Shown: positions 22,214 to 43,817 of the stretch, in pieces | Layout: each line of letters opens with the position of its first letter | Numbering within the stretch: the stretch's first letter is position 1 | NCBI GenBank assembly: GCA_947445225.1 | Contig: CANFCX010000002.1 | Span: 26,119 to 90,118, forward strand | DNA from: Rhodospirillales bacterium | GTDB lineage: Bacteria > Pseudomonadota > Alphaproteobacteria > CACIAM-22H2 | Direction of reading: 5' to 3' | DNA: 64,000 nt | Notes under the pieces: generated by a model | What the model saw: only the letters and a program-made list of their open reading frames with translations | Told to the model about the DNA's origin: nothing | Databases searched by the model: none | Translations under genes and position numbers: made by a program

Positions 22214-23791
22214 ATGGAAGGCACCGCCGGGAAGGCGCCCCGTTCTCGCCCGCCCACGTTGATCGCGCGGCTGTCGCGGCTGTGGCGTGACTGGGCCACC
22301 GGCGCGGTTCCACGGCCGCATCGCATTGCCTCCAGCCCTTGGGCCGGCGACCCGAACCGTGACGCCCGAATTTTCCTCGAAGAAAAAGCCCGAGCCGAAG
22401 CCGACAATTCGGCTGGCGCCCGCTTCCATTCCTTTGAGTGGCTGAACGATTTGCGCGCGTCCGGGGACGCGGATGCGCGCGGCCTGGCTCTCGGCGAGAT
22501 TTCGTCCTGGATCGACCTCCATGGCGATCCTAGTACGGTTTCCTGGCGCGCCGACATTCTGGGCGCGCGCTTGACGTCATGGCTGCGCGCTTACGATTTT
22601 CTCAACCCCGACGCCGATCTCGACCTTCGTCTCCGCCGCAGTTTCGCCCGGCAACTCCTCCGTCTCGCGCGCAGCGCCGGCACCGGGCCCGACGGAGTCC
22701 CCCGCCTCCTCGCGATCAAGGGATTGGTCTTTGCCGGGGCCTGCCTGCCCGGGCGGGACGCCCTCCTCACCCGTGGTCTGACCCTGCTCGAGCGTGAGCT
22801 TGGACGCCAAATCTTGGTTGACGGCGGACATGTCGAACGTTCGCCGGCCGCCCAACTCGAAGCGCTGCGTGTTCTTGTCGAGCTGCGCGTCCTCTTGAGC
22901 GAATGCGGCATCGGCGCGCCCGAGGCCCTTCATCACGCCATCGACCGCGTTGCTCCGATGCTCCGCTTCTTTCGTCATGGCGATGGCGGCCTTGCCCTGT
23001 TCAACGACAGCGGCGAGGCGGACGGCACGGAGATCGACGCTGTTCTTGCGGCCAGCGAAGCCAAGGGCAAACCACCCGCCGCGGCGTCGCATCTGGGCTT
23101 CCAGCGCCTGAGCGCGGAGCGCACGCTGGTTATCTTCGATGCCGGCGCGCCGCCGCCACCGGGGCTTGATCGGAGAGCCCATGCCGGCACGCTCAGCTTC
23201 GAGATGAGTGCCGGCCGCGAACGCCTGATCGTCAATTGCGGGGCACGCGCGGATTCGTCCGCGTGGCGGACCGCCCAACGCGCCACCGCCGCCCACAGCA
23301 CCGTCGTGGTTGCCGACACCAATTCGTCGGAATTGCTCGCCGATGGCGGTCTCGGCCATCGGCCGGTGACCGTGGAATGCCAACGCGCCGAGGCCGATGA
23401 AAATATCTGGATCGAGGCCAGCCACGACGGGTACCGCACGTTTGGCGTCATCCACCATCGCCGGCTTTATCTTTCCGCAGCCGGCGACGATTTGCGCGGC
23501 GAGGACCGTCTGACGGGTACCGCGGGGCGGCCTTTTGCCCTCCGCTTCCACATCCATCCCGAGGTGCAGGTGTCGCTCGCGCAAAATGGCGCCATGGTGC
23601 TGTTGCGGCCGCCGCGCGGGCCGGGCTGGCGCCTTCAGGTCGCGGGCGGGCGGATCGGGCTCGCGGAAAGCGTCTATTTGGGCAAGGCCGGCAAACCCCG
23701 GCGTTGCGAACAGATCGTCGTCGACGGAACGATCGGAACCGACGGCGCGGCGGTGAAATGGGCCATCAAACGCCTTCCGACGAAGGCTTGA
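22214..23791 (+). CDS. heparinase II/III-like family protein
   Basis: Alpha/alpha-toroid plus beta-sandwich family signatures (HAGTLSFEMSAG, ILVDGGHVERSP); conserved neighbour of rpe in alphaproteobacteria from memory. Confidence 0.55.
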   Translation: MEGTAGKAPRSRPPTLIARLSRLWRDWATGAVPRPHRIASSPWAGDPNRDARIFLEEKARAEADNSAGARFHSFEWLNDLRASGDADARGLALGEISSWIDLHGDPSTVSWRADILGARLTSWLRAYDFLNPDADLDLRLRRSFARQLLRLARSAGTGPDGVPRLLAIKGLVFAGACLPGRDALLTRGLTLLERELGRQILVDGGHVERSPAAQLEALRVLVELRVLLSECGIGAPEALHHAIDRVAPMLRFFRHGDGGLALFNDSGEADGTEIDAVLAASEAKGKPPAAASHLGFQRLSAERTLVIFDAGAPPPPGLDRRAHAGTLSFEMSAGRERLIVNCGARADSSAWRTAQRATAAHSTVVVADTNSSELLADGGLGHRPVTVECQRAEADENIWIEASHDGYRTFGVIHHRRLYLSAAGDDLRGEDRLTGTAGRPFALRFHIHPEVQVSLAQNGAMVLLRPPRGPGWRLQVAGGRIGLAESVYLGKAGKPRRCEQIVVDGTIGTDGAAVKWAIKRLPTKA

Positions 23792-23890: not shown

Positions 23891-24520
23891 TTGGCGAAAT
23901 CACAGGCATCGACGGGCGCGGGCGACACCGAAATCACACTCGGTCTGCTCAATGCGGTCGAAAAAAACAGCGATCTCACGCAGCGATCGGCGTCCCGCGA
24001 TCTCGGTATCGCGCTGGGTCTGACGAACGCCTATCTGCGCCGCTGCGTCAGCAAGGGGCTGATCAAGGTCAGGCAAATTCCCCGGAAGCGTTATGCGTAT
24101 TATCTGACGCCCAAGGGATTCGCCGAAAAAAGCCGGCTGACCGCGGAATACCTGTCCTCGTCGTTCAATTTTTTTCGCAAGGCCCGCAGCCAGCTCTCGG
24201 AATTGTTCGTGTTGTGCGAACAACGAAACTGGCGCCGCATCGCCCTTTGGGGATCCAGCGAGTTGGCCGAAATCGCCACCTTATGCGCGCGCGAACATGG
24301 CGTCGTTCTGGTCGGCATCCAGGATTCGAGAAGTAAAGCCGACACTTTCGCCGGGCTGAAGGTGTCAAGGCTGCCAGGCCAGCTTGGCGCGGTCGATGCC
24401 GTCATCCTCACCGAAACGCGGGCGCCGCAGGCCGCCTTCGACGAAGCCGCGGCAACCTTCGATCCAGAACGGATCCTGACGCCCAATCTGCTGCGGCTCG
24501 CGCATGGACGGAACCGCTGA
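23891..24520 (+). CDS. putative winged-helix transcriptional regulator, first gene of glycan locus
   Basis: N-terminal wHTH-like segment (LTQRSASRDLGIALGLTNAYLRRCVSKGLIKV...YAYYLTPKG) plus C-terminal alpha/beta domain; family unassigned. Confidence 0.4.
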   Translation: MAKSQASTGAGDTEITLGLLNAVEKNSDLTQRSASRDLGIALGLTNAYLRRCVSKGLIKVRQIPRKRYAYYLTPKGFAEKSRLTAEYLSSSFNFFRKARSQLSELFVLCEQRNWRRIALWGSSELAEIATLCAREHGVVLVGIQDSRSKADTFAGLKVSRLPGQLGAVDAVILTETRAPQAAFDEAAATFDPERILTPNLLRLAHGRNR

Positions 24521-24521
24521 C

Positions 24522-25025
24522 ATGCGGCGATGGTACGTCGCCCACACCCAGCCGCGCGCCGAATCCCAGGCCGAAATGCATTTGCGCCGCCAGGAATTCG
24601 ACGTCTACCTGCCGCGCCACAAAAAACAGCGCCGGCATGCGGGCCGCGCGGAAATCGTCGCGGCACCGTTGTTTCCGGGCTATCTGTTCGTGGGCATCGA
24701 CATGGAGCGCCAGCGTTGGCGTTCCATCGATTCCACGGTCGGCGTTCACCGGCTGGTATCGGGCGGAGACGGACCGATTCCCGTGCCGCCGGAGGTGATC
24801 GAGGCGATCCGCGAGCGCGAGGATGATTGCGGCTTCGTGGTCCTCGGGCGGGGGACAACTTTCGCGAAGGGCGATCGGATACGCGTGGTCGCCGGAGCAT
24901 TGAGCGATCAAGTCGGGTTGTTTGACGACGGGTCCGATTCCCAGCGTGTTGTTGTCCTGCTTCAACTTCTCGGCCGCCCCGTGCGCGTGAGGCTTCCGCT
25001 CGACGCGGTGGCCGCCTGCGCCTAG
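24522..25025 (+). CDS. NusG-family paralog (RfaH/UpxY-like operon-specific antiterminator candidate)
   Basis: NGN domain signature WYVAHTQPRAE...LFPGYLFV and KOW-like C-terminus; ~168 aa; sits directly upstream of the glycan operon leader. Confidence 0.7.
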   Translation: MRRWYVAHTQPRAESQAEMHLRRQEFDVYLPRHKKQRRHAGRAEIVAAPLFPGYLFVGIDMERQRWRSIDSTVGVHRLVSGGDGPIPVPPEVIEAIREREDDCGFVVLGRGTTFAKGDRIRVVAGALSDQVGLFDDGSDSQRVVVLLQLLGRPVRVRLPLDAVAACA

Positions 25026-25864: not shown

Positions 25865-27412
25865 GTGCTGGCCGTGAGCCCCGATACAGGTTTTCCGCCG
25901 GCCCTCGACGAAGCGACCGCGGCGCGGCGCTTCGCCAGCGTCGGGATAGAGGTGCGGGCGGTTTGGCGCGATCTCGCGCTCAAATTGGCGGAACGGCTAA
26001 AGCAGCGGTACGGGTCCAAGATCCATCTTTACGTTCGCAGCCCGGAGGAACTCCGAGCCTTTCAAAAGATGAACGCCGATGGCCGTTGGGACTCCGTATC
26101 CAACAACAATGTCATCCCCGAAGCCATGCGCGCGACCGGCCTGAACGACGCCGACGTCATTGCCCGCGCCCAAGAATTTGAAAAACAGACCGACACGACG
26201 ATTAACCTGATCGCCTGCGTCCACCGCCATTTCGGCCGCGGCTTCAGTCCGGGCAGCTTCCATTACCCGCGATCGCGGCACTATCAGGCGGTCAGCTACA
26301 TTCAGATGCTGCACGCACATAGCGAGCTGCTTGAATTCTGGCGCCGCGAGATCGAGGGCAAGGGCCTGACCCTGCTGCTCCAAGGCGACAAGGATGCGGC
26401 GATCATGGCCCGCGCCCATGGCATTCTCTATCGCCGTCTCGATACCACGCGCTACAAGAACTATTGGTACTGGACACCGAGCGAGTACTACTTCAACCCC
26501 GCCGTCGAGCCGGCCTATCACGCGATGACGTCGTGGCCGGAATCGGATCTCGGCGAGTCCTACACGCTTGCCACCGCAAAGAAGACTTGGTTCGCCAGCG
26601 ATTCGCTCGCCCTTACCTTGCGCCGCACCGCCATGGCGGCCCTTCGATATGGCTATTGGAAGTTACGGCGCTACCAAAAGGCCGATAGCTACGATTTCAG
26701 AGCCTTCGTGGCCTTCCCCATGCGTGAACATCTCGCCTTTCGGCGCATGACGGGAGCGCGCACCGTGCGGCTTGGTGATCTGGCCGGCCGACGGTTCGCC
26801 TATTTCCCGTTGCACAAGGAACCGGAAACGAGCCTCCAGCTGATGTCGCCGGAGCATTTCAATCAGCACGCCGCGATCCTTTCGATCGCCCGCGACTTGC
26901 CGGCCGGCGTGTTGCTCGCGATCAAGGAGAACATGTGGTCGCTCGGCCGCCGGCCCACCGACTTCTACGAACAAGTCGCCGACCTCAAGAATGTCGTGTT
27001 TCTCGATCTCCGCGAAAATGGCATCGATTGCGCGCGGCAGGCCGATTTCACCGTCACGATCACGGGCACGGCGGGATTCGAAGCCGCCGTGATGGGCAAG
27101 CCCGTTGTCACCTTTGGCCGCCACAACATGTACAGCGTGCTGCCTCACGTTATGACGGTCACCGACGAAAGGCAGATCAAGGGTTTCGTCGATCGGGCGA
27201 TCCACGGCGTCGATCCCGAAAAGGCGCGCAGCGATGGGGCCCGCTTCCTGGCGGCCGCGCTTGCTTGCTCTTTCGACATGAAAAACTTTGCCCTGAATAC
27301 GCGGACGCAGACCGCCCGCCTTCAGGATGACGCGGTCGAAAACGCTTATGCCGGGCTGATTACGAGCCTCGCCCTTCCCGAGACCAACCAGGTGGCGGCC
27401 TTGGCCGGATGA
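25865..27412 (+). CDS. capsule polysaccharide biosynthesis protein, KpsC/KpsS-like (Capsule_synth fold) candidate
   Basis: C-terminal motif TITGTAGFEAAVMGKPVVTFG resembles the NSTVGFEAL...GKPVV motif of KpsC/KpsS beta-Kdo transferases; from memory. Confidence 0.45.
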   Translation: MLAVSPDTGFPPALDEATAARRFASVGIEVRAVWRDLALKLAERLKQRYGSKIHLYVRSPEELRAFQKMNADGRWDSVSNNNVIPEAMRATGLNDADVIARAQEFEKQTDTTINLIACVHRHFGRGFSPGSFHYPRSRHYQAVSYIQMLHAHSELLEFWRREIEGKGLTLLLQGDKDAAIMARAHGILYRRLDTTRYKNYWYWTPSEYYFNPAVEPAYHAMTSWPESDLGESYTLATAKKTWFASDSLALTLRRTAMAALRYGYWKLRRYQKADSYDFRAFVAFPMREHLAFRRMTGARTVRLGDLAGRRFAYFPLHKEPETSLQLMSPEHFNQHAAILSIARDLPAGVLLAIKENMWSLGRRPTDFYEQVADLKNVVFLDLRENGIDCARQADFTVTITGTAGFEAAVMGKPVVTFGRHNMYSVLPHVMTVTDERQIKGFVDRAIHGVDPEKARSDGARFLAAALACSFDMKNFALNTRTQTARLQDDAVENAYAGLITSLALPETNQVAALAG

Positions 27413-28647: not shown

Positions 28648-29946
28648 GTGCGCCCTCGCCTTGTCCTATTTTTCCTGTCGCCGCGGTTGATCGATTGCGA
28701 CAGCTACTTGCCCGTGGCGATGGAGATGAAGGCGCAGCTTCCCGATCTCGACATCCGGTTCGTTACCTTCAGCCGGGAAAACTACGATGATGTCCGCAGC
28801 AACCCCACTTTGGCGGCGGGCCTCGCCCGCTGTGGCACACTCGCCTGGGTCGGCGGCGAGGGGCCGGGCGGTCGGTTACGACGGTCGCTGCGTCGAATCC
28901 GCAAATTCGCGGAACTCGCCGCAAGCCTTATCCGGCGACCCGGGGCCATGCTCTTTCACGGGCGGCAGTATGTCGAACGCCCCTACCGCGCGCTGTTTTG
29001 GCTGAACCGCATGCTTGGCGGGCGCGGTTTCGTCCTGGCCAGGATCCGCATGGTTGACGAGGGGCACCATCCCCATCGGCTGAGCGAGTTCGAGGTCATG
29101 GGGTCGCGCCGACTCTCGTGGCTTGATCGCCTTCGCGGGCGCGAGAGCGACGGACTTGTGCACTACCACGACCGCCAGGAGATGTATCTCCGCTCTCTCG
29201 CGAAATTTGGACGCACAGACTGGCCGCGGCGCGCCAAAGTCGGGTTGCCCAGCGCCTTGCCTTCATGGCGGGCGCTTATCGCCGAGGCGGTGGAGACCGA
29301 ACGCCAAGCGCTCGCCGCCGCGGGCCGCAACGTGGACGAGATCTACAGTTTCTTTTCTGCCAAGGGTTACAGCTCCACCCATCTGCGCACGCCGGAGTCG
29401 GCGCAACGCACCTTCGACAACGTCGTGCGTAGTTTGACGACCCTGCGGCCGCGCGCGACGATTCTGCTTCGGCCCCATCCCCTGGCCCTGCGCGAACCTT
29501 GGTTCAAGGCGGCGTTGGAGGCGATCGGGAACCCCAATGTGGTTCTCAGCTACGCCCATCCCGAAGTCATGGTCGCCCTGTCGCGCCGTGCCTTGGTCAA
29601 CAATCCCACCAACATCCTGTTCACCACGCCCTTCGGCCGATTCATCGATTGCAGCGACTATCGCCCGTCACATTATGAGCAAGTCGGCGAGGCTTCGCTG
29701 GCGGAGGGATATGGCGTCGTGTTCGTCAACCCCGCCCGCGACGATTTCGCCCAGCGCCTCGAATGGGCGCTCGGCGAGGAGCCGTGGCAAGACGTGGCCG
29801 TCTTCGCCAAGCGGGAGCGACTGAGCCGCGACAATCCGCCCTCGATCGCCGAAATGCTGAACTGGTTCGAGGCGTCCATGCCAAACGCCGATCCCATCCC
29901 CTCGGGCATAAGCAACGCCGCTAGCAGTCCGGGGCAACGACCGTGA
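28648..29946 (+). CDS. hypothetical protein, possible GT-B-like/Capsule_synth-like transferase
   Basis: No firm motif; length and position in glycan operon. Confidence 0.3.
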   Translation: MRPRLVLFFLSPRLIDCDSYLPVAMEMKAQLPDLDIRFVTFSRENYDDVRSNPTLAAGLARCGTLAWVGGEGPGGRLRRSLRRIRKFAELAASLIRRPGAMLFHGRQYVERPYRALFWLNRMLGGRGFVLARIRMVDEGHHPHRLSEFEVMGSRRLSWLDRLRGRESDGLVHYHDRQEMYLRSLAKFGRTDWPRRAKVGLPSALPSWRALIAEAVETERQALAAAGRNVDEIYSFFSAKGYSSTHLRTPESAQRTFDNVVRSLTTLRPRATILLRPHPLALREPWFKAALEAIGNPNVVLSYAHPEVMVALSRRALVNNPTNILFTTPFGRFIDCSDYRPSHYEQVGEASLAEGYGVVFVNPARDDFAQRLEWALGEEPWQDVAVFAKRERLSRDNPPSIAEMLNWFEASMPNADPIPSGISNAASSPGQRP

Positions 29947-30665
29947 GCACCGGCGTTCTTTGCGTGATCCCGGCGCGCGGCGGGTCAAAAGGCCTGCCCC
30001 GGAAAAACGTCCTGCCCCTGGCCGGGCGGCCGCTAGTCGGCTACCCCATCGCGGCGGCGAAGGCGAGCGGCGTGTGCGATGCCATCTTCGTCACGACCGA
30101 CGACGAAGAAATCGCGGCGGTTGCCCGGGCCGAGGGCGCCGATGTGCCGTTCCTGCGGCCCGCCGATTTGGCCGGGGACCTGACGACGACGGAAGCCACG
30201 TTGCGCCACGCCTTGCTCGCCTATGAGTCCCATACCGGACGGCAATTCGACATTTGCGTCTTCCTGACGCCGACCGACATCTTTCGCAGCCCGGCCTGGA
30301 TTGCTCGCGCCGTGAACCTGCTGAAGGAACAGCCGAAACTCGAAAGCGCCTTCGCCGGTACCGCCACGCACAAGAATTACTGGGACCGCGAACCCGGCGG
30401 CGCCTGGGTTCGCGTCCTGCCCTGGATGCGCGACTACAGCTCGCGGCAGGTGCGCCGGAAAATCTATCGCGAGGACACCGGGCTCGCCTGCGCCAGCCGC
30501 GCCGATATCTGGCGCGGCGGACGGCGAATCGGCGACGTCGTTGAAATCATTCCCAACGACCTCCCCGAGACGGCGATCGACATCCATACCGCCTTCGACC
30601 TGTTCCTGGCGACCAAGGCGATCGAATATCTGCGCGCGCACCACCCCGAGCGCCTCCCCGTCTGA
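29943..30665 (+). CDS. acylneuraminate cytidylyltransferase family protein (CMP-ulosonic acid synthetase)
   Basis: N-terminal VIPARGGSKGLPRKN motif of NeuA/PseF/LegF family. Confidence 0.8.
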   Translation: MSTGVLCVIPARGGSKGLPRKNVLPLAGRPLVGYPIAAAKASGVCDAIFVTTDDEEIAAVARAEGADVPFLRPADLAGDLTTTEATLRHALLAYESHTGRQFDICVFLTPTDIFRSPAWIARAVNLLKEQPKLESAFAGTATHKNYWDREPGGAWVRVLPWMRDYSSRQVRRKIYREDTGLACASRADIWRGGRRIGDVVEIIPNDLPETAIDIHTAFDLFLATKAIEYLRAHHPERLPV

Positions 30666-32062
30666 TGGCAAAAACACCAACCGCGACTTCAGGCAACGAT
30701 GGACCTTTGGTCTCCATCATCGTACGCACAAAGAACGAGGAGCGCTGGATCGGTAGCTGCCTGCGCGCCATCCAACGCCAGACCTATCGCAATTACGAAA
30801 TTATCCTGGTCGATAACCTGTCGACCGACCAGACGGTGGCGAAGGCCGCGCCTTTCGGTGTCAAGCTGGTGCGAATCGACAAATTCCTGCCCGGCAAGTC
30901 CCTGAACGACGGCATCCGCGCCAGTCGTGGAGAGATTCTGGTCTGCCTTTCCGGGCACTGCATCCCGGTCAACGAGGTCTGGCTTGGCAATCTCGTCCGC
31001 AATCTCGGCGATTCAGACGTCGCGGGCGTTTATGGCCGTCAGGAGCCGTTGAGCTTTTCGTCCGATCTCGATAAACGCGACCTGCTCATTACATTTGGCC
31101 TCGACCGCAAAGTACAGGTCAGGGACAGCTTTTTTCACAACGCCAACAGCGCGATGCGGCGGGCGGTCTGGGATCGCTTTCCCTTCGACGAAACCGTGAC
31201 CAATATCGAGGATCGGGTGTGGGCGCGACAGGTCCTATCCGCGGGCATGAAGATCGTCTACGAGCCCGAAGCCAGCGTCTACCACTGGCACGGCATCCAT
31301 CAGGAGATGAATTCTGAGCGGGCGCGCAATGTCGTGCGCATCATGGAACAGATCGATGGTACCGAAAGGATCGGCGCCGGCCCCGATTCCGCCGACCTTC
31401 ACGTCGTGGCGATCGTGCCGAGCAAGGGCGAACCGCGCCGATTCAACAACGCGCCGCTCGCCCTGCCCACGCTACGCCACGCGCTGGCCGCCAAATACGT
31501 CAACCATGTATTTGTCGCCACCGACAATGACGAGATGGCGGCGGTGGCGCGATCCGCCGGCGCCGGCGTCATCATGCGGCCGCCGAGCCTGTCCGAAGAC
31601 TACGTTGATATCGTCGATGTGTTGCAATTCGCCTTGGAACGAATCGAGGCGCAGGGGACTGTCCCGGATTTGGTCGTCGCACTCGAGGAGACCCACCCCT
31701 TTCGCCCAATCGCCCTCGTGGATTCAATGATCGCCAAATTGGTGAAGGAAGGGATGGACAGCCTGGTGGCGGCCAAACGGGAGCCCCGCCGCGTGTGGCT
31801 GAGCGACGATGGCTCGATCCGAGATGCGGGAGAGGGCGGATTCATGCCGCGTCAGTTCAAACGCACCGTGGCGTTTATCGGGCTGTTCGGTCTCGCCTTC
31901 GTCACTCACCCCAGCCTGATCCGCAGCGGCAGCATGTTCGGCGGCAAGGCCGGCATCTACGAAATCGACGATCCCTTCTGCGGCATCGAAATCCGCAGCG
32001 AGGAGCATCTGAAAAAAGCCGGCCCGCTGTTCGAGGCGTGGTCCCGAGAGACCCGGCCGTGA
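30665..32062 (+). CDS. bifunctional fusion: N-terminal GT2 glycosyltransferase + C-terminal acylneuraminate-cytidylyltransferase-like domain
   Basis: N-term VSIIVRTKNEERWIGSCLRAIQRQTY...EIILVDN (GT2), C-term AIVPSKGEPRRFNNAPLA...ATDNDEMAAVARSAG (CTase). Confidence 0.65.
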   Translation: MAKTPTATSGNDGPLVSIIVRTKNEERWIGSCLRAIQRQTYRNYEIILVDNLSTDQTVAKAAPFGVKLVRIDKFLPGKSLNDGIRASRGEILVCLSGHCIPVNEVWLGNLVRNLGDSDVAGVYGRQEPLSFSSDLDKRDLLITFGLDRKVQVRDSFFHNANSAMRRAVWDRFPFDETVTNIEDRVWARQVLSAGMKIVYEPEASVYHWHGIHQEMNSERARNVVRIMEQIDGTERIGAGPDSADLHVVAIVPSKGEPRRFNNAPLALPTLRHALAAKYVNHVFVATDNDEMAAVARSAGAGVIMRPPSLSEDYVDIVDVLQFALERIEAQGTVPDLVVALEETHPFRPIALVDSMIAKLVKEGMDSLVAAKREPRRVWLSDDGSIRDAGEGGFMPRQFKRTVAFIGLFGLAFVTHPSLIRSGSMFGGKAGIYEIDDPFCGIEIRSEEHLKKAGPLFEAWSRETRP

Positions 32063-33150
32063 GTCGCCGGAGTTATCGCGCCGCGTTCATCGGCTGCGGC
32101 CGCGTGGCCGAGCACTATGTGCGCATTCTCACCAAGATCGATCCGGTCGATCGGCTTGCGATCGCCGCTTGCAGCGATCCGATCGAAGCTAAAGCGCGGT
32201 CGATCGGCGCCGCGCTTGGCGCCAAACCCTACGGCAATACCGCCCAAATGCTCGCCGAAACCCGGCCCGATCTGGCCATCGTGATGACGCCCAGCGGATA
32301 CCACTATGACCATGCCAAGCAGGCGCTGGAGGCCGGATGCCACGTTCTCGCGGAGAAACCGGTGACGATCATCCCCGGCCAGGCAGGTGAGCTTGCGACT
32401 CTCGCCCGCGCTCGCGGTTTGCTCTACGGCGGCGTATTCCAGAACCGGTACAATCCGGCGCTCCGAAAGCTGCGCGAAGCCGTCGATAAGGGACGCTTCG
32501 GCACCATCGTAACGGCCGCCATTCGCCTGCGCTGGTGCCGCACCCAGGATTATTACGAGGATGGGTGGCACGGCACCTGGGCCATGGATGGCGGTGTCAT
32601 CAACCAGCAGGCCATACATCATGTCGATGCGCTGAATTGGCTTTGCGGCCCGATCGAGGCTGTCTCCGCGTCGGCCGGCAACCGCCTGAACCGGCTGGAG
32701 GCGGAGGACACGATGGTGGCCGCCATCCGCTTTTCCAGCGGCGCGCTCGGCACCATCGAGGCGACGACCGCGGCGCGACCGGTGGATTTCGAAGCCTCGC
32801 TGAGCATCGTCGGTGAGAAGGGAATGGTCCAGGTCGGCGGCATCGCCCTCAACCATATCGATGTCTGGCGTTTCGTGGTGCCCGAAGCGGAAGACGCGGA
32901 GATTCCCGCCCGCTGGTCGCAAGAGGTGGAATTCGGCTACGGAGTCGGCCACGGTCCGCTGCTTCGGGATTGGGTGGCGGCGCTGGATGCTGGCGCCGTC
33001 GAGCCACCGATCCCGGCGATGCAGGCGGTCCAGGCCGTCGAGCTGGTGCACGCGCTCTACGCCAGCGTCGAGACCGGCAACTGGGTCCGACCGCGCGACA
33101 AGGCGCAATCCGCGCGACTGGGCATCGCGCCGAAATCAAGGGCATCATGA
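32059..33150 (+). CDS. Gfo/Idh/MocA family NAD(P)-dependent oxidoreductase
   Basis: AFIGCGRVAEHY Rossmann start, EKP motif (VLAEKPV); GTG 32059 overlaps upstream stop (GTGA). Confidence 0.8.
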   Translation: MSRRSYRAAFIGCGRVAEHYVRILTKIDPVDRLAIAACSDPIEAKARSIGAALGAKPYGNTAQMLAETRPDLAIVMTPSGYHYDHAKQALEAGCHVLAEKPVTIIPGQAGELATLARARGLLYGGVFQNRYNPALRKLREAVDKGRFGTIVTAAIRLRWCRTQDYYEDGWHGTWAMDGGVINQQAIHHVDALNWLCGPIEAVSASAGNRLNRLEAEDTMVAAIRFSSGALGTIEATTAARPVDFEASLSIVGEKGMVQVGGIALNHIDVWRFVVPEAEDAEIPARWSQEVEFGYGVGHGPLLRDWVAALDAGAVEPPIPAMQAVQAVELVHALYASVETGNWVRPRDKAQSARLGIAPKSRAS

Positions 33151-34043
33151 CCACGATTGAAAACAAGTTTCCCGGCAAGGATGTCTCCGACGATGACCTG
33201 CGCACGAAACTCAGGCTGACGGCGAAGGCCAATCCCGGACACAGGAGCCGATTCACCGTGGCCGGGGTTGAATTCGGCGGCGATCTCGTCCCCGTCTTCG
33301 CCGGCCCGAACATGGTCGAGTCCGAGAGCCTGATCGTCGATATCGCCAAAGCCGTCAAACGGGCGGGCGCTCATTTCCTGCGCGGCGGCGCCTTCAAGCC
33401 GCTGACGTTCCCCTATCGCAGCGCGAAATACGCCGAGACACGCGAAGAGGGAATTGCCTGGCTCGCTCGCGCCAAGGCGGTGGCGGGAATCCCGGTCATC
33501 ACCGAGATCATGGAAGAGAAGTACATACCGCTCGTCGCCGGAGTCGCCGACATCCTCCAGATCGGCGCCCGCAACATGCAGAACTATCCCTTGATCGTCG
33601 CCTGCGCGCGGACCGGCAAGCCGATCATGTTGAAACGCCATTTCGGCTGCTCGTTGCGCGATTGGCTGGGCGCGGCGGAATACATCCTGGCCGAGGGCAA
33701 TGAAAAGGTGATCCTGTGCGAGCGCGGCATCTCCGCACCGCACACGCACCGCGCCACCTCGCGCTTCCTCCTCGATCTTCAAGTCGTGCCGGCCGCGCAG
33801 GAAGTGACACATCTGCCGATCGTCGTTGATCCCAGCCACGCCACCTTTTGGCGGGCTTGGGTGGCGCCGATGGCTCTCGCCTCGGTCGCCGCCGGAGCCG
33901 ACGGCGTGATGATCGAAGTTCACCCCGATCCGCCCAACGCCGCGGTCGATCCCCTGCAACCCGTCGACTACGCCGAGTTCAAGGACATCATGGGCCGCAT
34001 GGACGCGGTCGCCCGCGCCGTCGGACGAAAAGTGCTGGCGTGA
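33147..34043 (+). CDS. DAHP synthetase I family protein (type I-beta DAHPS/KDOPS-like PEP aldolase) paralog
   Basis: [10 protein letters not shown] and [13 protein letters not shown] motifs match AroA(G)/T. maritima-type DAHPS; 298 aa; ATGA overlap with upstream gene. Confidence 0.75.
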
Positions 34044-34933
34044 CGGCGATCTCCGGACTGATCGAGAACAACGTAGCGTGGCAGCCGGGCAAGCCCTTCG
34101 CGGCGATCTTGGGCGCCAGCCCCTCAAAGGGGGCGCGGTCGCCTCGCCTTTGGAATGCAGCCTTCGCCGCGTGCGGCCGGGATTCAAGGATGGTGCCGTT
34201 CGACGTGACCGCGGCCAAACTGGCGGCTCTGCTGGAGGCCCTCGACCGCGATACCGATTTCCTCGGCGCGGCGATTGCCGTGCCGCATAAGGAGGCCGTG
34301 GCCCGGTGGCTCGGGGAGCGCGTCACTCCGGAAGCCGCGCGGATCGGAGCCGTGAACTGCCTCTTTCGGCGCGACGGACGCCTTTGGGGCACCAATACCG
34401 ATGGCGAGGCCGCCCGCGTCAGCCTGGAGCGAAGAGTTGGCGGGCTGTTGTCGGAGAAGCGTGTCCTCCTGCTCGGCCCCGGAGGCGCTGGCAAGGCAGT
34501 CGCGGCCTTCATCGTCGGCGGCTGCCGCGCGCTGTTTTTGGTCGGACGCGATGCCGAACGGACGCGCGCCTTCGCGGACAGGATCGGAGCGTCGTCCATT
34601 TCCGTCTCGGCACTCGATGCGCAATTGCCGGCGGTGGATGTGCTGGTCAACTGCACCAGCGTCGGCAGCGCCGCGGCCGGCACGGCGGAGCTTTCGCCGC
34701 TCTCCCCGGCCCAGATTGCGCGGCTTCCCGACCACGCCCTGGTCTTTGACATCATCTACGATCCCAGCCCGACTCGGCTTCTTGCCCTCGCGGCGGCGCG
34801 CGGCCTGGCCACGCTTGACGGGACCGAAATGAACCTCGAACAGGCGGCGCTCGCATTCGGCCATGCCGTTCCCGGCACTGGCACCGCCTCTGACATACAT
34901 GCGGCGATGGCGGCGGCGGCACGCCGCGCGTGA
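34040..34933 (+). CDS. shikimate/quinate 5-dehydrogenase (AroE) family protein
   Basis: SPxxxNAAF-like (SPRLWNAAF), GTNTDG and Rossmann LLLGPGGAGKAV motifs; GTG 34040 overlaps upstream stop (GTGA). Confidence 0.75.
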   Translation: MTAISGLIENNVAWQPGKPFAAILGASPSKGARSPRLWNAAFAACGRDSRMVPFDVTAAKLAALLEALDRDTDFLGAAIAVPHKEAVARWLGERVTPEAARIGAVNCLFRRDGRLWGTNTDGEAARVSLERRVGGLLSEKRVLLLGPGGAGKAVAAFIVGGCRALFLVGRDAERTRAFADRIGASSISVSALDAQLPAVDVLVNCTSVGSAAAGTAELSPLSPAQIARLPDHALVFDIIYDPSPTRLLALAAARGLATLDGTEMNLEQAALAFGHAVPGTGTASDIHAAMAAAARRA

Positions 34934-35816: not shown

Positions 35817-36752
35817 ATGGACGCGCAAGCCAAAATCAAACCGCGCCGCACACCGGTCCAAGAAATGATGTTCATTTACGGTCTGCGCGCGGGCTTGCCC
35901 TTTCCGGCGATCAAGGTCGCCGCGGAGGCTCTGGACGTTGCGCGCCGCCCGTTGGATTGCTGGCATCGCCGCGCCGTCGCCCGATCGGTGTCGGCCGGTT
36001 CGTCGCGGCGGAACCACATTCCCCGGGCGAAGGGATTTGAGTTCATCGATTCCACGATCGTCCCGGAGATCGCGGCGCTGGTTTCCGCCGGGCAGGCGCT
36101 TTACGCCGAACGCGCGCGTTCCGTGCCCCAGGATGGGGCGCAGCCTTTCTACGACATCCTAACTGCGCGCGACATTCTCGACCAAAAGGCATTTCTCGAC
36201 GCGGCCTTGTCGCCGGCGATGGTCGAGATCGCCGCGGGCTATTTCGGCACGATGCCACGGCTGCAAAACCTAATGCTCTGTGTCTCGCCAGGCCGTCCCG
36301 CCTCGGCCCAAAGCGAACTGTTCCATTTGGATAAACCAAACGTTGGATTCCTGCAGGCCTTCGTCAACGTGCTCGATGTGGGGCCGGAAAACGGTCCGCT
36401 AACCTTTCTGCCCGCCGATGTTACCGCCCGCGTTCGCAGCGCCACCGGTTATGACCGCCGCTCGTTTTCCGGCGATACACGTCTCCGCGACGAAGAGGTG
36501 TTTCAGCATTGCCGTCACGAGGACGCCGTCGCCCTGGTCGGTCCGGCCGGGCACGGCGCCTTCGTCGACACGTCGAATTGCCTGCATTTCGGCTCTCGAT
36601 GCCGCGGCGGTGTTCGCGTCGTTTGTATTATTCAATACGCCCCGGCGCATAAATGTCGCCCGTCCTTTTCCGGGCGTTTCGACGGTCATCGATTCGGCGG
36701 CGATCCGATCCGGAGTCTCTTGCTCGACGGCGCGAGGCCGCGGTCCGAGTGA
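35817..36752 (+). CDS. phytanoyl-CoA dioxygenase (PhyH) family Fe(II)/2-oxoglutarate oxygenase candidate
   Basis: H-x-D facial triad candidate (FHLDKP), ENGPLTFLP motif. Confidence 0.45.
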   Translation: MDAQAKIKPRRTPVQEMMFIYGLRAGLPFPAIKVAAEALDVARRPLDCWHRRAVARSVSAGSSRRNHIPRAKGFEFIDSTIVPEIAALVSAGQALYAERARSVPQDGAQPFYDILTARDILDQKAFLDAALSPAMVEIAAGYFGTMPRLQNLMLCVSPGRPASAQSELFHLDKPNVGFLQAFVNVLDVGPENGPLTFLPADVTARVRSATGYDRRSFSGDTRLRDEEVFQHCRHEDAVALVGPAGHGAFVDTSNCLHFGSRCRGGVRVVCIIQYAPAHKCRPSFSGRFDGHRFGGDPIRSLLLDGARPRSE

Positions 36753-39402: not shown

Positions 39403-40349
39403 TCGCCGACCCGCCCGGCCGCTACTTCGTACTGCTCTATCACGGCGTTCATGCCGATGATCTCGAACTCGGCCACCGCAATAGTTCGGGAAAACATGTG
39501 CCGCGCTCGCGTTTTGCCGCCGAGATGCGGCATTTGGCCGCGAACCGCCCGGTCGTGCGCTTGAGCGACATCGCCGCCGCCCATCGCGGCGAGCGCGACC
39601 TGCCGGCGGGTGCGGTCGCCGTCACCTTCGACGACGGCTTCTACAACAATCTCGCCGAGGCGCTGCCTGTTCTTGAGAAATTCGGCGTCCCCGCGACCTT
39701 CTATCTCGCGACCGGATTCATCGGCACCGGCCGCGCGATTTGGACCGACCGGTTAGAGGCAGCGATTGTGCAGACCAAACGCGACCGGCTGACTCTTGTT
39801 TTAAGCGGCGTGGAGACGCGTTTTCCCCTGACCGACAGACAATCCCGCCTAACCGCCCTATCCGCGGTCAAACGTGCCTGCAAAGGCCTGCCCAACGCCG
39901 ACAAGGACATCGTGGTGGCCGAGGTCGAAGCGCAGCTACAGGCTCAAGCCGACCCCAATCACCCGCTTTATCGCTTCCTCGATTGGGACGACGTGCGGAC
40001 GATGAACCGATCCCCCGTTGTCGATTTCGGCGCGCACACCGTGGACCATGTTTCGCTGGCGAAAGTGCCCAGGGCGGAGATGCGGCGGCAAATCGACGAC
40101 TCGGTGGCGGCTCTGGAAAGCGCATTGCAGCATCGCTGCACGTTGTTTTCCTACCCCGAGGGGCAGGCCGACGATTACGACGACCATGTCATCGGCCATC
40201 TGCGCGAACGCGGCTTCGATCACGCGCCGAGCGCCATGGCGGGGTCCAACGATCTTGGAATCACCAACCCCTTCCATATCCGCCGCGACATGGTCGGGTT
40301 CGAGAACCGGCCCTATCCATTCATGCCCCAACCGAAGAACGCGGCATGA
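39399..40349 (+). CDS. polysaccharide deacetylase (NodB homology domain)
   Basis: VTFDDGF and His-ligand motifs; ATGA overlap both ends. Confidence 0.75.
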   Translation: MIADPPGRYFVLLYHGVHADDLELGHRNSSGKHVPRSRFAAEMRHLAANRPVVRLSDIAAAHRGERDLPAGAVAVTFDDGFYNNLAEALPVLEKFGVPATFYLATGFIGTGRAIWTDRLEAAIVQTKRDRLTLVLSGVETRFPLTDRQSRLTALSAVKRACKGLPNADKDIVVAEVEAQLQAQADPNHPLYRFLDWDDVRTMNRSPVVDFGAHTVDHVSLAKVPRAEMRRQIDDSVAALESALQHRCTLFSYPEGQADDYDDHVIGHLRERGFDHAPSAMAGSNDLGITNPFHIRRDMVGFENRPYPFMPQPKNAA

Positions 40350-41362
40350 TCCTGTTCGGTCGCGATCTTGATAAGGATGTGGCCGTGGTCGCCGAAATCG
40401 GCGTCAACCACGAAGGCAACGTCGATGTGGCCTCCCGCATCCTTGCCGCCGCCGCGAAGGCCGGGGCCGATGCGGTCAAGCTGCAAAGTTACACGCCCGA
40501 GCGTTACACCTCCGCTTCGGACGCCGAACGTTTTGCCCGAGTCTCGCGCGTCGCCCTCGACATCGCCGCCCACGACCGCCTGGCAGCGGAGGCCAAGGCA
40601 ATCGGCATTCCCTTGTTTTCGACACCGCTTTCCGAAGATTGGGTCCAGCCGATCGCGGAATTCGCTCCGGCCATCAAGATCGCGAGCGGCGATCTGACGT
40701 TCGAGACCGTGATCCGCGCCGCCGCCCGCACCGGCAAGCCGGTCCTCCTCTCGACCGGCTGCGGTGTCGTCGATGAAATCGACCGGGCCGTGGGTTGGGT
40801 GCGCGACGAGGTTGGTCCGAAGGCATTGAACGAAAGGTTGGTTCTGCTGCATTGCGTGTCCGGCTATCCCACGCCCATTGAGCAGGCCAATGTGCGCGCC
40901 GTGCCTTTCCTGAAGGCACGGTACGGCCTGCCGGTCGGCTACTCCAACCATGTCATCGGGTCCGAGGCCGTGCTGGCCGCCGCGGCTTTGGGGGCGGCGG
41001 TTATCGAGGTCCACGTTACCGATGCCAATCTGCGGGAGACGAGCAGCTTCCGCGATCACCGTCTGTCGTTCACCGGGCCGGAACTGGCGGCGCTCATCCA
41101 ATCCATCCGGGGCGTGAAATCCGCGCTGGGCGATGCGGCGAAGACCGTGCAGGCGGCGGAGGCCGGGAATCGAGACGCAATCCGCAAGGGGATCGTCGCC
41201 AAACACGACCTTGCCGCGGGTGTCGTGTTGACCGATGACGATCTGCTCTATGCGCGCCCGGCAACACAGTTCCTCGCCGCCGAACGTCCGACACTTATCG
41301 GCCGGCGTTTGCTGCGCGCCTTGCGCCGGGGTGAGATCGTTCCGCGGGACGCGGTGAAATAA
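40346..41362 (+). CDS. N-acetylneuraminate synthase family protein (NeuB/LegI/PseI-type) with SAF domain
   Basis: VVAEIGVNHEGN...KAGADAVKLQ N-terminus and C-terminal SAF-like domain. Confidence 0.85.
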   Translation: MILFGRDLDKDVAVVAEIGVNHEGNVDVASRILAAAAKAGADAVKLQSYTPERYTSASDAERFARVSRVALDIAAHDRLAAEAKAIGIPLFSTPLSEDWVQPIAEFAPAIKIASGDLTFETVIRAAARTGKPVLLSTGCGVVDEIDRAVGWVRDEVGPKALNERLVLLHCVSGYPTPIEQANVRAVPFLKARYGLPVGYSNHVIGSEAVLAAAALGAAVIEVHVTDANLRETSSFRDHRLSFTGPELAALIQSIRGVKSALGDAAKTVQAAEAGNRDAIRKGIVAKHDLAAGVVLTDDDLLYARPATQFLAAERPTLIGRRLLRALRRGEIVPRDAVK

Positions 41363-41365
41363 TCC

Positions 41366-43192
41366 ATGTGCGGCATTGCCGGCGCCATCCATAGAAGCCC
41401 GCTCGATGATAAGCGCATCGCCGCGACCTTCGCCGCGATGAAGAACCGCGGACCCGATGGCAGCGGCGTCCATCGCGGCACATTGGGCGGCTTTTCCGTG
41501 ACGCTGCTCCACACGCGACTTGCCATCATCGATCTCGATCCGCGCGCCAATCAGCCCTTCATTCGCGGCAACCTCGTGCTCATCTACAACGGCGAAATCT
41601 ACAATTACGTCGAGCTGCGCGCGGAGTTGGAGGGGCTTGGACACCGCTTCACGACGACATCGGATACCGAGGTCATCGTCGAGGCATGGCGGGAGTGGGG
41701 AAAGGCGTCGTTCGACCGCTTCGAGGGGATGTGGGCCTTCGCCCTTCTCGATACGGCCAAGGATCGTTTGATCCTGTCGCGCGACCGCTTCGGCGAAAAG
41801 CCGCTTTATTTCATGCGCCATGACGGCGCGTTGTATTTCGCTTCCGAGGTGAAATTTCTCGAGGCGCTTTCGGGTCATCGGCCCGCCGCCAATCTTCGCC
41901 AGGTGCGGCGCTACCTCGTTAATGGCTACAAGTCGTTATACAAGGGACAAGACACCTTCTTCGACGGCGTCGGCGCGTTGCCGGCCTCTACCTTCGCCGA
42001 GATGGCCGGTCCGGATTTGCCCATGCCCCGCCGCTATTGGCGACTGGAATACGCCCCACAGGCAATGTCGGCGCCTGACGCCGCCGATGGCGTGCGCGCA
42101 CGTTTGACGCGAGCCGTCGAAATCAGGCTGCGCGCGGACGTCCCGGTTGCCTTCTGCCTGTCCGGCGGCATCGATTCGGGAACCCTGGCGGCCCTGGCCG
42201 TCAAACATTTCGGCGCCCGCCTACATGCCTTTTCGATCATTGACGGCGACGCCCGCTACAACGAAAGCGCCAATATCGCGACCGTGGTCGAGGATCTCGG
42301 CTGCGAGCATCATATCGTCCACACATCGACCGAGGGTTTCCTCGATCGCCTTGACGCGCAAATCGCCTATCACGACGCCCCGGTGGCGACGATCACCTAT
42401 TACCTGCACGCGTTCCTGTCGCAGGCGATCGCGGCGCGCGGCTATAAGGTGGCGATCTCGGGCACGGCCGCCGACGAACTCTTCACCGGCTATTACGACC
42501 ACTACGCCTTCTGGCTGGCCGAACAGCGCGACCGCAACGATTTCCCGCATGTCCTCGACGAATGGCGCAAGAGTTATGGCGCCTTTGTCCAGAACCCGTT
42601 GCTCCAAGATCCCCTCCGTTTCGTCGCCGAGCCCTGCGCGCGCGACCATATTTTCCTGAACGCGGACTTCTTTTCTTCCCTGTTGCGCGATCCCTTCGAC
42701 GAACCCTTCGCGGAGGCGGCCTATAGCGGCAATTTGCTGCGGAACCGGATGCTGAACGAACTCCAACACGAATCCATCCCGGTGATCCTCGGCGAGGACG
42801 ACATGAATTCGATGGAATATTCCATCGAGAACCGTTCGCCCTATCTCGACCGCGATCTGGCGGAGTTCGCTTATCGGATTCCCAACGCGCACCTGATTCG
42901 CGACGGCTTCGTCAAATGGCCGCTGCGCGAAGCCGGGGCCGGAAGCCTGCATGACCGCGTGCGCCTGGACCGGCGCAAGCGGGGATTCAATGCTTCCATC
43001 GAATCGCTGCTCGACCGCCGCGATCCGCGGGTTCGGGAGCGCCTGCTCGCCCCCGGTCCAATTTTCGACGTGGTTGATCGCAAGCGTTTTCTCGAATTCT
43101 TCGACGCCGACATGACCGACAACAGTTTCTCGAAATTCCTGTTCAGTTTCGTTTCGGCGCGCCTGTTCCTCGATCGCCGAGCAGCGGCTTGA
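41366..43192 (+). CDS. asparagine synthetase B-type glutamine amidotransferase (copy 1)
   Basis: MCGIAG nucleophile, PP-loop CLSGGIDS. Confidence 0.85.
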   Translation: MCGIAGAIHRSPLDDKRIAATFAAMKNRGPDGSGVHRGTLGGFSVTLLHTRLAIIDLDPRANQPFIRGNLVLIYNGEIYNYVELRAELEGLGHRFTTTSDTEVIVEAWREWGKASFDRFEGMWAFALLDTAKDRLILSRDRFGEKPLYFMRHDGALYFASEVKFLEALSGHRPAANLRQVRRYLVNGYKSLYKGQDTFFDGVGALPASTFAEMAGPDLPMPRRYWRLEYAPQAMSAPDAADGVRARLTRAVEIRLRADVPVAFCLSGGIDSGTLAALAVKHFGARLHAFSIIDGDARYNESANIATVVEDLGCEHHIVHTSTEGFLDRLDAQIAYHDAPVATITYYLHAFLSQAIAARGYKVAISGTAADELFTGYYDHYAFWLAEQRDRNDFPHVLDEWRKSYGAFVQNPLLQDPLRFVAEPCARDHIFLNADFFSSLLRDPFDEPFAEAAYSGNLLRNRMLNELQHESIPVILGEDDMNSMEYSIENRSPYLDRDLAEFAYRIPNAHLIRDGFVKWPLREAGAGSLHDRVRLDRRKRGFNASIESLLDRRDPRVRERLLAPGPIFDVVDRKRFLEFFDADMTDNSFSKFLFSFVSARLFLDRRAAA

Positions 43193-43809: not shown

Positions 43810-43817
43810 GGAGGGTC

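Follow-up and report, generated by a model that had tools for sequence, protein, structure and literature searches.

Genes of the cassette

The stretch of DNA analyzed here, termed the window, is 64,000 nucleotides long and derives from a Rhodospirillales bacterium (assembly GCA_947445225.1, contig CANFCX010000002.1, positions 26,119 to 90,118 of the forward strand). Three overlapping genes at 32059-34933 of the window encode an oxidoreductase of the Gfo/Idh/MocA family, an aldolase with the fold of type I-beta 3-deoxy-D-arabino-heptulosonate 7-phosphate (DAHP) synthases, and an AroE-like protein with the fold of shikimate dehydrogenase (SDH). This trio is the core of a conserved cassette of five functions, the other two being a cytidylyltransferase and a protein of the glycosyltransferase family 2 (GT2) type. 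As set out below, the cassette is a candidate pathway for a sugar acid of bacterial surface glycans.

All five genes lie on the plus strand. The stand-alone cytidylyltransferase gene (29943..30665) encodes a CTP_transf_3 domain (PF02348, 70.9 bits), and it is followed by a gene in which a GT2 domain is fused to a second CTP_transf_3 domain (30665..32062; PF00535 84.5 bits, PF02348 36.5 bits). The Gfo/Idh/MocA gene (32059..33150) encodes 363 amino acids with matches to PF01408, PF02894 and PF22725. The aldolase gene (33147..34043) encodes 298 amino acids and matches PF00793 (DAHP_synth_1) with 181.6 bits, while the product of the AroE-like gene (34040..34933) has 297 amino acids and matches PF08501 and PF01488 with 54.3 and 33.6 bits, respectively.

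The genes of the trio are linked by short overlaps between stop and start codons. The GTG start of the Gfo/Idh/MocA gene at 32059 overlaps the stop of the fusion gene (GTGA), the ATG start of the aldolase gene at 33147 overlaps the stop of the Gfo/Idh/MocA gene (ATGA), and the GTG start of the AroE-like gene at 34040 overlaps the stop of the aldolase gene (GTGA). The two upstream genes (29943-30665 and 30665-32062) are also translationally coupled to the trio. A preliminary description of this DNA had given the trio the same coordinates, strand and overlaps. The motifs that it quoted are present (GPNMVESE and LRGGAFKP at 33147-34043, GTNTDG and SPRLWNAAF at 34040-34933), and its assignments to the Gfo/Idh/MocA family, the I-beta DAHP synthase fold and the AroE family are upheld by Pfam and NCBIfam scores.

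Homologues of 298-301 amino acids cover 97-100% of the AroE-like protein and so back the long version of its gene, which begins with GTG. The public gene call is 247 amino acids long and begins about 50 codons too late, leaving out 34040-34186. The locus L085 (position 11044) is cited alongside this correction, the homologues aligning from the GTG at 34040.

Recurrence of the cassette in metagenomes

Related loci were collected from metagenomes by a DNA motif scan for the family peptide FKPL[TS]FPYR, which returned at least 120 matches, at least 118 of them encoding the aldolase. Over 100 independent loci combine these genes, so the arrangement is not due to chance, and the trio has its counterparts in other glycan loci. 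Partner genes were counted by tblastn in the 17 listed loci that are readable for at least 3 kb on each side. Of these loci, all 17 have the Gfo/Idh/MocA partner, 16 the AroE-like partner, 15 the GT2-cytidylyltransferase fusion and 12 the stand-alone cytidylyltransferase, while a NeuB gene occurs at a distance of up to 3 kb from the aldolase in 1 only. Some of the apparent absences of partners are failures of detection. The deep branch L182, whose aldolase is 47% identical to the window protein, is an example: its AroE-like protein is found with Pfam and falls below tblastn detection. In this locus, FMN_dh, CTP_transf_3, GT2, Gfo/Idh/MocA, DAHP_synth_1 and Shikimate_dh_N matches (all by Pfam) are consecutive, and the row continues with an ATP-binding cassette (ABC) exporter and PseB.

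The commonest gene order is cytidylyltransferase, GT2 fusion, Gfo/Idh/MocA, aldolase and AroE-like. The same members are also found in the order Gfo/Idh/MocA, AroE-like, cytidylyltransferase, aldolase and GT2 fusion. The cassette functions occur together in L001, L002 and L005, and a 4.8-Mb contig, ERZ26167216 ctg495904, carries the GT2 fusion, Gfo/Idh/MocA, aldolase, AroE-like and cytidylyltransferase genes consecutively. L002, from the metagenome-assembled genome (MAG) GCA_028281495.1, is a stand-alone set of four genes (Gfo/Idh/MocA, GT2 fusion, aldolase and AroE-like) outside any large glycan locus, and neither NeuB nor PseB was found within 10 kb of it. Most loci are glycan loci with ABC exporter, PseB, DegT and epimerase genes. 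Clustering of the neighbouring open reading frames (ORFs) de novo gives an epimerase of the short-chain dehydrogenase/reductase (SDR) family, an ABC exporter, a DegT aminotransferase and a radical-SAM protein as the next most frequent neighbours, and no recurrent phosphatase was found by this clustering.

The guanine-plus-cytosine (GC) content of the loci (at least 118) ranges from 22 to 73%, with a median of 33%, and many of them are AT-rich aquatic contigs. Across this whole range the aldolase remains about 70% identical to the window protein, and no other cassette member is as well conserved. Homologues of the aldolase are very abundant: the best 120 of at least 8000 candidates are, with the exception of one near-duplicate of the window protein (99%), 73-82% identical, and nearly all are metagenomic. 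The cassette is widespread in uncultured aquatic bacteria. Named MAGs with family members carry the labels Nisaea, Alphaproteobacteria, Ilumatobacteraceae and Acidobacteriota. A scan of genome contigs with the aldolase alignment gave listed matches dominated by canonical DAHP synthases through the shared pattern QIG[STA]RNMQ. The family members among these listed matches are L005-L008 only, and named species are thus poorly sampled. The family motif had no match on viral contigs, and plasmids in PLSDB gave canonical aroF-type matches only, all below 60% identity. No paper on this combination of genes was found in the searchable literature.

The preliminary description had joined the aldolase functionally to the Gfo/Idh/MocA oxidoreductase, the AroE-family protein and the cytidylyltransferases. 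The co-occurrence of these genes in very divergent loci, together with the active-site changes that run through the whole aldolase family, supports this association.

A clade derived from DAHP synthases

Distinct features of the aldolase become apparent in a residue-level alignment to the I-beta DAHP synthase structures 1VS1, 1ZCO, 4C1K and 4GRS. The canonical AGPCSVES reads AGPNMVES in the window aldolase, which places an Asn at the position of the metal-ligand Cys. The canonical KPRTSPY is replaced by KPLTFPYR and three extra residues; in DAHP synthase structures, the Arg and Ser of the canonical segment hold the phosphate of erythrose-4-phosphate. ERGIRTFE is changed to a segment of the type ERGxxxxHTHR with a three-residue insertion. 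The second Arg of ERGIR is lost in this change, and the Arg of the inserted HTHR may stand in for it. Finally, SHPAGRR reads SHATFWR, with a gain of two aromatic residues. The remaining metal-site residues (His, Glu and Asp) are kept, and the elements that bind phosphoenolpyruvate (PEP), LRGG, KP, IG(A/S/T)R and LKR, are invariant in the homologues.

This signature is invariant in 20 homologues and absent from 76 canonical I-beta enzymes, which were drawn as controls from diverse phyla in the scan of genome contigs and are 41-51% identical to the window aldolase. Among 125 family members, the Cys position is occupied by Asn in 114 and by Cys in 8 and is unreadable in 3, so that Asn accounts for 114 of the 122 readable sequences. 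KPL(T/S)FPYR is found in 125/125. The controls have Cys in 76/76 and KPR in 75/76. When 35 sequences of the family and 30 canonical ones are placed in a neighbour-joining tree, the two groups are split in 100 of 100 bootstraps; identities are 61% among family members, 59.5% among the canonical enzymes and 44% across the two groups. The DAHP-synthase-like protein therefore belongs to a monophyletic clade of its own, apart from the canonical I-beta enzymes.

The Cys-type members are basal in this tree. These sequences (GPC[AT][VI]E; L008, L115, L119, L120, L148, L155, L195 and L208) already have KPLTFPYR and cassette neighbours, and for this reason the aldose site appears to have changed before the metal ligand was lost. 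A further trait of the family is an N-terminal extension of 35 residues (33147-33250) with the pattern ENKFPGKD...D..L...H..F, in which N6, P9, G10, K11 and D12 are invariant. It is not present in unadorned canonical I-beta enzymes.

The score of the aldolase with NF006421 (319.1 bits) is just below the cut-off of 335. Models of 3-deoxy-D-manno-octulosonate (Kdo) 8-phosphate synthase (KDO8PS) score much lower (NF003543 97.5 against 242, TIGR01362 95.3 against 314), and kdsC and kdsD were not found nearby; the enzyme is not KdsA. Replacement of Cys by Asn at the metal site is the established signature of metal-independent KDO8PS enzymes (PMC3052366). The aldolase family appears to have repeated this type of metal loss on a DAHP synthase scaffold. 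Taken together, the substitutions predict a metal-independent, PEP-dependent enzyme with a remodelled aldose site that acts as a chain-building synthase of ulosonic acids. DAHP itself is a doubtful product, because Leu takes the place of the KPRT Arg in every family member and the adjoining loop is remodelled. For the same reason the suggestion in the preliminary description that the product is an acid of seven or eight carbons (C7/C8), similar to Kdo or to 3-deoxy-D-lyxo-heptulosaric acid (Dha), finds little support.

The redox pair

The AroE-like protein (34040-34933) scores below the cut-off of every one of 17 shikimate/quinate dehydrogenase (AroE/YdiB) models, the best results being 154.3 against 252 for NF001319 and 146.9 against 200.2 for TIGR00507. 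Its catalytic Lys (PHKE) and Asp (NTDG) and the Rossmann motif GPGGAGKA are present and are conserved in 70 homologues linked to the cassette, among which PyKe, N, NTDg, Y and MN..QA are conserved as well. An alignment to the structures 2EGG and 1NVT reveals that the canonical HSxSP..HN has become gARSP.lWN, and the new motif is conserved in the 70 homologues. In addition, the Thr of T-x-P-H-K is Ala in the family. Both HSxSP..HN and the Thr before the catalytic Lys contribute to shikimate binding in the canonical enzymes. The divergent version in L182 has KSP..WN and MN..QA in common with the others. Matches in the Protein Data Bank (PDB) include 5-ketofructose reductase (7COK, 94 bits), so the AroE fold is already known to take keto-sugars. 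The protein is predicted to be a reductase or dehydrogenase of a keto-sugar or keto-sugar acid.

The Gfo/Idh/MocA protein (32059-33150) matches PDB entry 3Q2K with 227 bits (E 3e-66, 36.6% identity over 333 amino acids) and 3Q2I with 219 bits, and the next best structure scores about 70 bits. The Lys of its EKP motif and the His of HxxD align with those of 3Q2K. The PDB titles of 3Q2K and 3Q2I read only "oxidoreductase" or "dehydrogenase"; we take both to be WlbA, a 3-dehydrogenase of UDP-N-acetylglucosaminuronic acid. The WlbA structures reportedly go back to Thoden and Holden in 2011. A single-sequence AlphaFold2 (AF2) model of the Gfo/Idh/MocA protein has a predicted local distance difference test (pLDDT) score of 34. 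The enzyme is predicted to oxidize a sugar hydroxyl to a ketone.

The cytidylyltransferase and the GT2 fusion

The stand-alone cytidylyltransferase (29943-30665) scores 119 bits with the PseF model, which is short of its equivalog cut-off (205.7), compared to 29-40 bits with KdsB models. Its best PDB match is the NeuA/CMP-pseudaminate synthetase 9FTB (90.7 bits), while KdsB reaches about 32 bits. It contains the canonical P-loop IPARGGSKGLPRKN, which is conserved in 50 homologues from cassette loci. The enzyme is predicted to be of the CMP-nonulosonate synthetase type and to activate an ulosonic acid.

The fusion protein (30665-32062), which has 3461 homologues with E<=1e-20, is modelled by AF2 with a pLDDT of 82 as a GT-A domain followed by a complete cytidylyltransferase fold. 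The C-terminal domain resembles CMP-N-acetylneuraminate synthetase (6IFD; template modelling (TM) score 0.80-0.84) and CMP-Kdn synthetase (9T4Z; 0.80) more than KdsB (0.63-0.66). Its P-loop is shortened to IPx[RK]G, and it is uncertain whether this domain is active despite the matching fold. The idea that it is dead was dropped, as most homologues keep IPx[RK]G. In the GT2 domain, LSGHC stands where a DXD motif is expected (30950-30965, residues 95-99, placed by motif position), and S96, H98 and C99 are invariant in an alignment of 37 sequences. The stand-alone GT2 protein of L182 has EDD instead. The fusion protein may serve as a transferase, a nucleotide-sugar hydrolase or a second activating enzyme.

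It had been proposed that the upstream cytidylyltransferases activate the product of the aldolase, a Kdo-like or Dha-like unit. The linkage part of this proposal stands, since the association of the genes is conserved, but both proteins have folds far more like those of NeuA, PseF and CMP-Kdn synthetase than that of KdsB.

The surrounding glycan locus

The window is part of a metagenome contig (ENA ERZ27280192) of alphaproteobacterial character. Housekeeping genes (ffh, rimM, trmD, leuCDB, asd, rpe, ftsY and dapF, along with a PhyR-type sigma domain) occupy the window up to about 22 kb. They are followed by a plus-strand glycan locus of about 40 kb of the pseudaminic-acid type. Its members include a NusG paralogue, a KpsS/C-like protein, a NanM-like O-methyltransferase, an ABC exporter, a formyltransferase, a deacetylase, AsnB, HisH and WbuZ-like amidino genes, a carbamoyltransferase, a third cytidylyltransferase, glycosyltransferase family 4 genes, and a PseB equivalog (510 bits against a cut-off of 408). 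Pfam scans of the approximately 55 ORFs in the 64-kb window found none of aroB, aroD/Q, aroK, aroA and aroC, which agrees with the preliminary description, where a shikimate-pathway arrangement was ruled out. A gene for a heparinase II/III-like protein (22214-23791; PF07940, 231.8 bits) separates the housekeeping block from the glycan locus.

The glycan operon is headed by an HTH_24 regulator and the NusG paralogue (23891-25025; PF02357, 86.5 bits), a combination that suggests antitermination of the RfaH/UpxY type. Scans near the operon for an ops/JUMPstart-like GGCGGTAG, promoters and terminators gave no excess over chance. A 515-residue protein (25865-27412) has a weak Capsule_synth (KpsS/KpsC family) match of 21.1 bits, barely above the cut-off. 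Members of this family are CMP-Kdo-dependent transferases, and the protein is a candidate transferase for a CMP-ulosonic acid. Four ORFs of 311-548 amino acids in the coupled operon (28648-29946, 35817-36752, 44588-45697 and 47627-49273) have no Pfam match even at E=5, except for a faint DUF7411 match (E 0.011) on 44588-45697. The first of them overlaps the cassette cytidylyltransferase gene by 4 bp.

As noted in the preliminary description, there are two NeuB-type synthases in the locus (40346-41362 and 55705-56775), and the aldolase is the third PEP-condensing enzyme beside them. They score 243 and 262 bits, under the NeuB/PseI equivalog cut-offs (400). The PseB equivalog adjoins one of the NeuB genes and is followed by an RmlD-like reductase; the usual PseC/PseH/PseG set is not there. 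An AsnB-type amidotransferase, HisH (214 bits) and a WbuZ/HisF2-like protein (224 bits, below the cut-off) form a "glycosyl amidation" trio at 41366-44564. Because this is a known amidation set, the nonulosonic acids of the locus are probably acetamidino-modified. A carbamoyltransferase of the NodU/CmcH type is encoded at 52184-53830. Another lies in divergent orientation beside the L002 cassette (L002 5147-6964), and others are found in L089 and L153. These neighbours hint at O-carbamoylation of the cassette product.

A proposed pathway

On balance we favour, by a narrow preponderance of probability, the interpretation that the cassette is a pathway for the synthesis and activation of a 3-deoxy-2-ulosonic acid destined for a surface glycan, independently of KdsA and of NeuB-type synthases. 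The substrates, the product and the order of steps given here are what we infer from the folds, the family-specific substitutions, the separation of the clade and the co-occurrence observed above. In the proposed pathway, the aldolase would condense PEP with an aldose that is not bound in the manner of erythrose-4-phosphate, giving an alpha-keto sugar acid. This step would probably be metal-free, given the change from Cys to Asn. The Gfo/Idh/MocA enzyme would oxidize one hydroxyl and the AroE-fold enzyme would re-reduce the resulting ketone, with net epimerization or redox tailoring as the outcome. The NeuA/PseF-type cytidylyltransferase would then form the CMP-sugar.

There are two variants of this scheme, which differ in the position of the redox pair. 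In variant A, the pair would act after condensation, on the free or the CMP-linked acid, in the manner of ElaA and ElaC, whose substrate is CMP-legionaminic acid. In that system, a CTP_transf_3 protein (ElaB), a Gfo/Idh/MocA protein (ElaA) and a reductase (ElaC) turn CMP-Leg5,7Ac2 into its C8 epimer (PMC13656337), and EpaA and EpaB carry out the same epimerization for pseudaminic acid (PMC12053666). In variant B, the redox pair would tailor a nucleoside diphosphate (NDP)-hexose, and the GT2 domain, which is without DXD, would release the free aldose and so do the job that PseG or NeuC does elsewhere. Condensation and CMP activation would follow. Variant B would explain the constant presence of the GT2-type member, the likeness of the Gfo/Idh/MocA protein to a UDP-sugar dehydrogenase, and the lack of a recurrent phosphatase.

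The structure of the expected product may also bear on the recruitment of the AroE fold. A pyranose ulosonic acid can be viewed as an oxa-analogue of quinate, the C(OH)(COOH), CH2 and CHOH groups being common to both. Because of this resemblance, the AroE fold would be a natural scaffold for a dehydrogenase or reductase acting at C4 of an ulosonate.

Several points weigh against the ulosonic-acid interpretation. The aldolase still scores 279.9 with TIGR01361, the equivalog-domain model of I-beta DAHP synthases, and so passes its cut-off of 267.75. Arg91, Lys94 and Arg99 are invariant in the lengthened beta2-alpha2 loop of the enzyme and could form a phosphate site anew, in which case the substrate may be phosphorylated and could even be erythrose-4-phosphate. 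The lack of a recurrent phosphatase fits a non-phosphorylated aldose, but could equally mean that a housekeeping phosphatase takes part. On chemical grounds, a 4-keto CMP-ulosonate is prone to loss of CMP, which weakens the C4 version of variant A. Moreover, all members of the cassette come from metagenomes, and there is no glycan chemistry that can be matched to it.

Alternative explanations

The passing TIGR01361 score is also an argument for a first alternative, in which the aldolase is the DAHP synthase of the cell and the AroE-like protein its shikimate dehydrogenase, both of which merely happen to lie inside a glycan operon. The presence of both Pfam shikimate-dehydrogenase domains and the intact catalytic residues of the AroE-like protein point the same way. 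We nevertheless regard this as highly improbable. The metal Cys, universal among the controls, is replaced in nearly all family members, and the Arg that contacts erythrose-4-phosphate is replaced in all of them; none of the 17 AroE/YdiB models accepts the AroE-like protein, whose substrate motif is altered as well; and no other aro gene lies within 64 kb. Many Alphaproteobacteria use a class II DAHP synthase in any case. Across loci the aldolase and the AroE-like protein are linked to cytidylyltransferase, GT2 and Gfo/Idh/MocA genes, and the spread of the clade over contigs of 22-73% GC and MAGs of different phyla is a pattern typical of mobile glycan cassettes. A second alternative keeps the glycan context and holds that the aldolase still makes DAHP or a close C7/C8 phosphate, from which the cassette yields an acid similar to Kdo, 3-deoxy-D-arabino-heptulosonic acid (DAH) or Dha. 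It is unlikely, although of the alternatives considered here it has the most to recommend it: the fold of the aldolase is closest to DAHP synthase, Arg91, Lys94 and Arg99 could hold a phosphate, and the eight basal members retain the metal-ligand Cys. However, the replacement of KPRT by KPL(T/S)F is without exception in the family, a KdsC-like or other phosphatase does not recur in the loci, the cytidylyltransferases are of the NeuA/PseF and not the KdsB kind, and no dehydrogenase fit for forming the C7 carboxylate of Dha can be picked out.

The ElaABC and EpaAB precedents raise the further possibility that the Gfo/Idh/MocA and AroE-like pair, together with a cytidylyltransferase, only epimerizes nonulosonic acids made by NeuB, the aldolase being unrelated. 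Two NeuB genes and a PseB equivalog in the window are consistent with it. It is quite unlikely all the same, as the aldolase, the best conserved member, is almost never found without the redox pair, the L002 cassette stands apart from any NeuB or PseB gene, and NeuB is near the aldolase in just one of the well-flanked loci. The stand-alone cassette of L002, which sits beside regulatory and metabolic genes, could in turn point to a product other than a glycan, such as a glycosylated sugar-acid osmolyte or a metabolite of the aminoshikimate or cyclitol type. Relatives of the GT2 domain include glucosyl-3-phosphoglycerate synthase, and gene clusters for 3-amino-5-hydroxybenzoic acid (AHBA) combine the same three folds, namely Gfo/Idh/MocA (RifL), DAHP synthase (RifH) and SDH (RifI). 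An AHBA or cyclitol cluster was rejected, since dehydroquinate synthase, dehydratase and AHBA synthase are neither in the window nor recurrent in the loci. A small-molecule product of any kind is very unlikely: activation of the CMP type points to ulosonic acids, and most of the loci are glycan loci.

Significance

Ulosonic acids such as Kdo and sialic, pseudaminic and legionaminic acids shape the recognition of bacterial surfaces by phages and hosts. To our knowledge, every route described for them relies on KdsA or a NeuB-type synthase. If the proposed pathway is correct, a synthase derived from DAHP synthase, with redox and activation partners of its own, would be a new entry to ulosonic-acid chemistry. 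It would also be the second case in its superfamily, after KDO8PS, of metal loss by a change from Cys to Asn, and the AroE fold would have a new job. What is new here is the conserved cassette and, with it, the prospect of ulosonic-acid biosynthesis by newly recruited enzyme families.

A bolder extension of the pathway, which we put forward tentatively and think rather doubtful as a whole, is that the aldolases, as metal-independent offshoots of DAHP synthase, are a third, independently evolved class of glycan ulosonic-acid synthases, whose CMP-keto-acid lies outside Kdo (C8) and the neuraminic, pseudaminic, legionaminic and Kdn (C9) acids, has a new chain length or configuration, is tailored by an AroE fold acting as an ulosonate ketoreductase, and is common on the surfaces of uncultured marine and freshwater bacteria that are themselves abundant. 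CMP-linked C10 alpha-keto acids, as yet unassigned, have been reported in Magnetospirillum gryphiswaldense (bioRxiv 10.64898/2026.04.20.719630). These could serve as an example of the kind of product to be expected; no link between them and the cassette was found.

Given that more than 100 loci were recovered, many of them on AT-rich aquatic contigs, the sugar may be ecologically common. There is also a consequence for annotation. These genes are publicly annotated as "3-deoxy-7-phosphoheptulonate synthase" and "shikimate dehydrogenase", and such annotations inflate predictions of aromatic-amino-acid capacity for MAGs.

Comparison with known systems

The aldolase shares the TIM-barrel family of type I-beta DAHP synthases (AroF/AroA(G); A. 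pernix 1VS1, P. furiosus 1ZCO and T. maritima 1RZM) at 41-51% identity. In contrast to these enzymes, members of its clade have glycan and cytidylyltransferase genes as neighbours and are not accompanied by aro genes. With the metal-independent KdsA of the E. coli type it shares Asn in place of the metal Cys, while His, Glu and Asp stay (PMC3052366). As in the KDO8PS family, Cys and Asn forms both occur within the cassette aldolase family, and CMP activation of the product is expected. Unlike KdsA, the aldolase has no KANRS motif, kdsC and kdsD are not found with it, and the accompanying cytidylyltransferase is not KdsB-like.

The two redox enzymes have separate relatives. The nearest structural relative of the Gfo/Idh/MocA protein is the presumed WlbA of 3Q2K/3Q2I, with which its catalytic Lys and His align, whereas the WlbC aminotransferase and WlbB acetyltransferase of the WlbA system have no counterpart in the cassette. 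The 5-ketofructose reductase 7COK resembles the AroE-like protein in being an SDH-family enzyme that acts on a keto-sugar, but it is distant, acts on a free ketohexose and is without glycan context.

The ElaABC and EpaAB systems of Acinetobacter and Vibrio, compared here by their descriptions, are similar to the cassette in that CTP_transf_3, Gfo/Idh/MocA and a second NAD(P)H reductase are adjacent, an architecture seen in the window and in most of the related loci. The reductase of the cassette, however, has the SDH fold and not that of an SDR or an aldo-keto reductase, and the cassette has its own synthase derived from DAHP synthase and does not depend on NeuB or LegI. The synthase is likewise of another family than those of the NeuB/PseI/LegI pathways, with a faint PF03102 signal and no SAF domain. 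Nevertheless, the proposed pathway and these pathways have in common the scheme in which an aldose and PEP give an ulosonic acid and then a CMP-sugar, and they share the same type of cytidylyltransferase and the same kind of locus.

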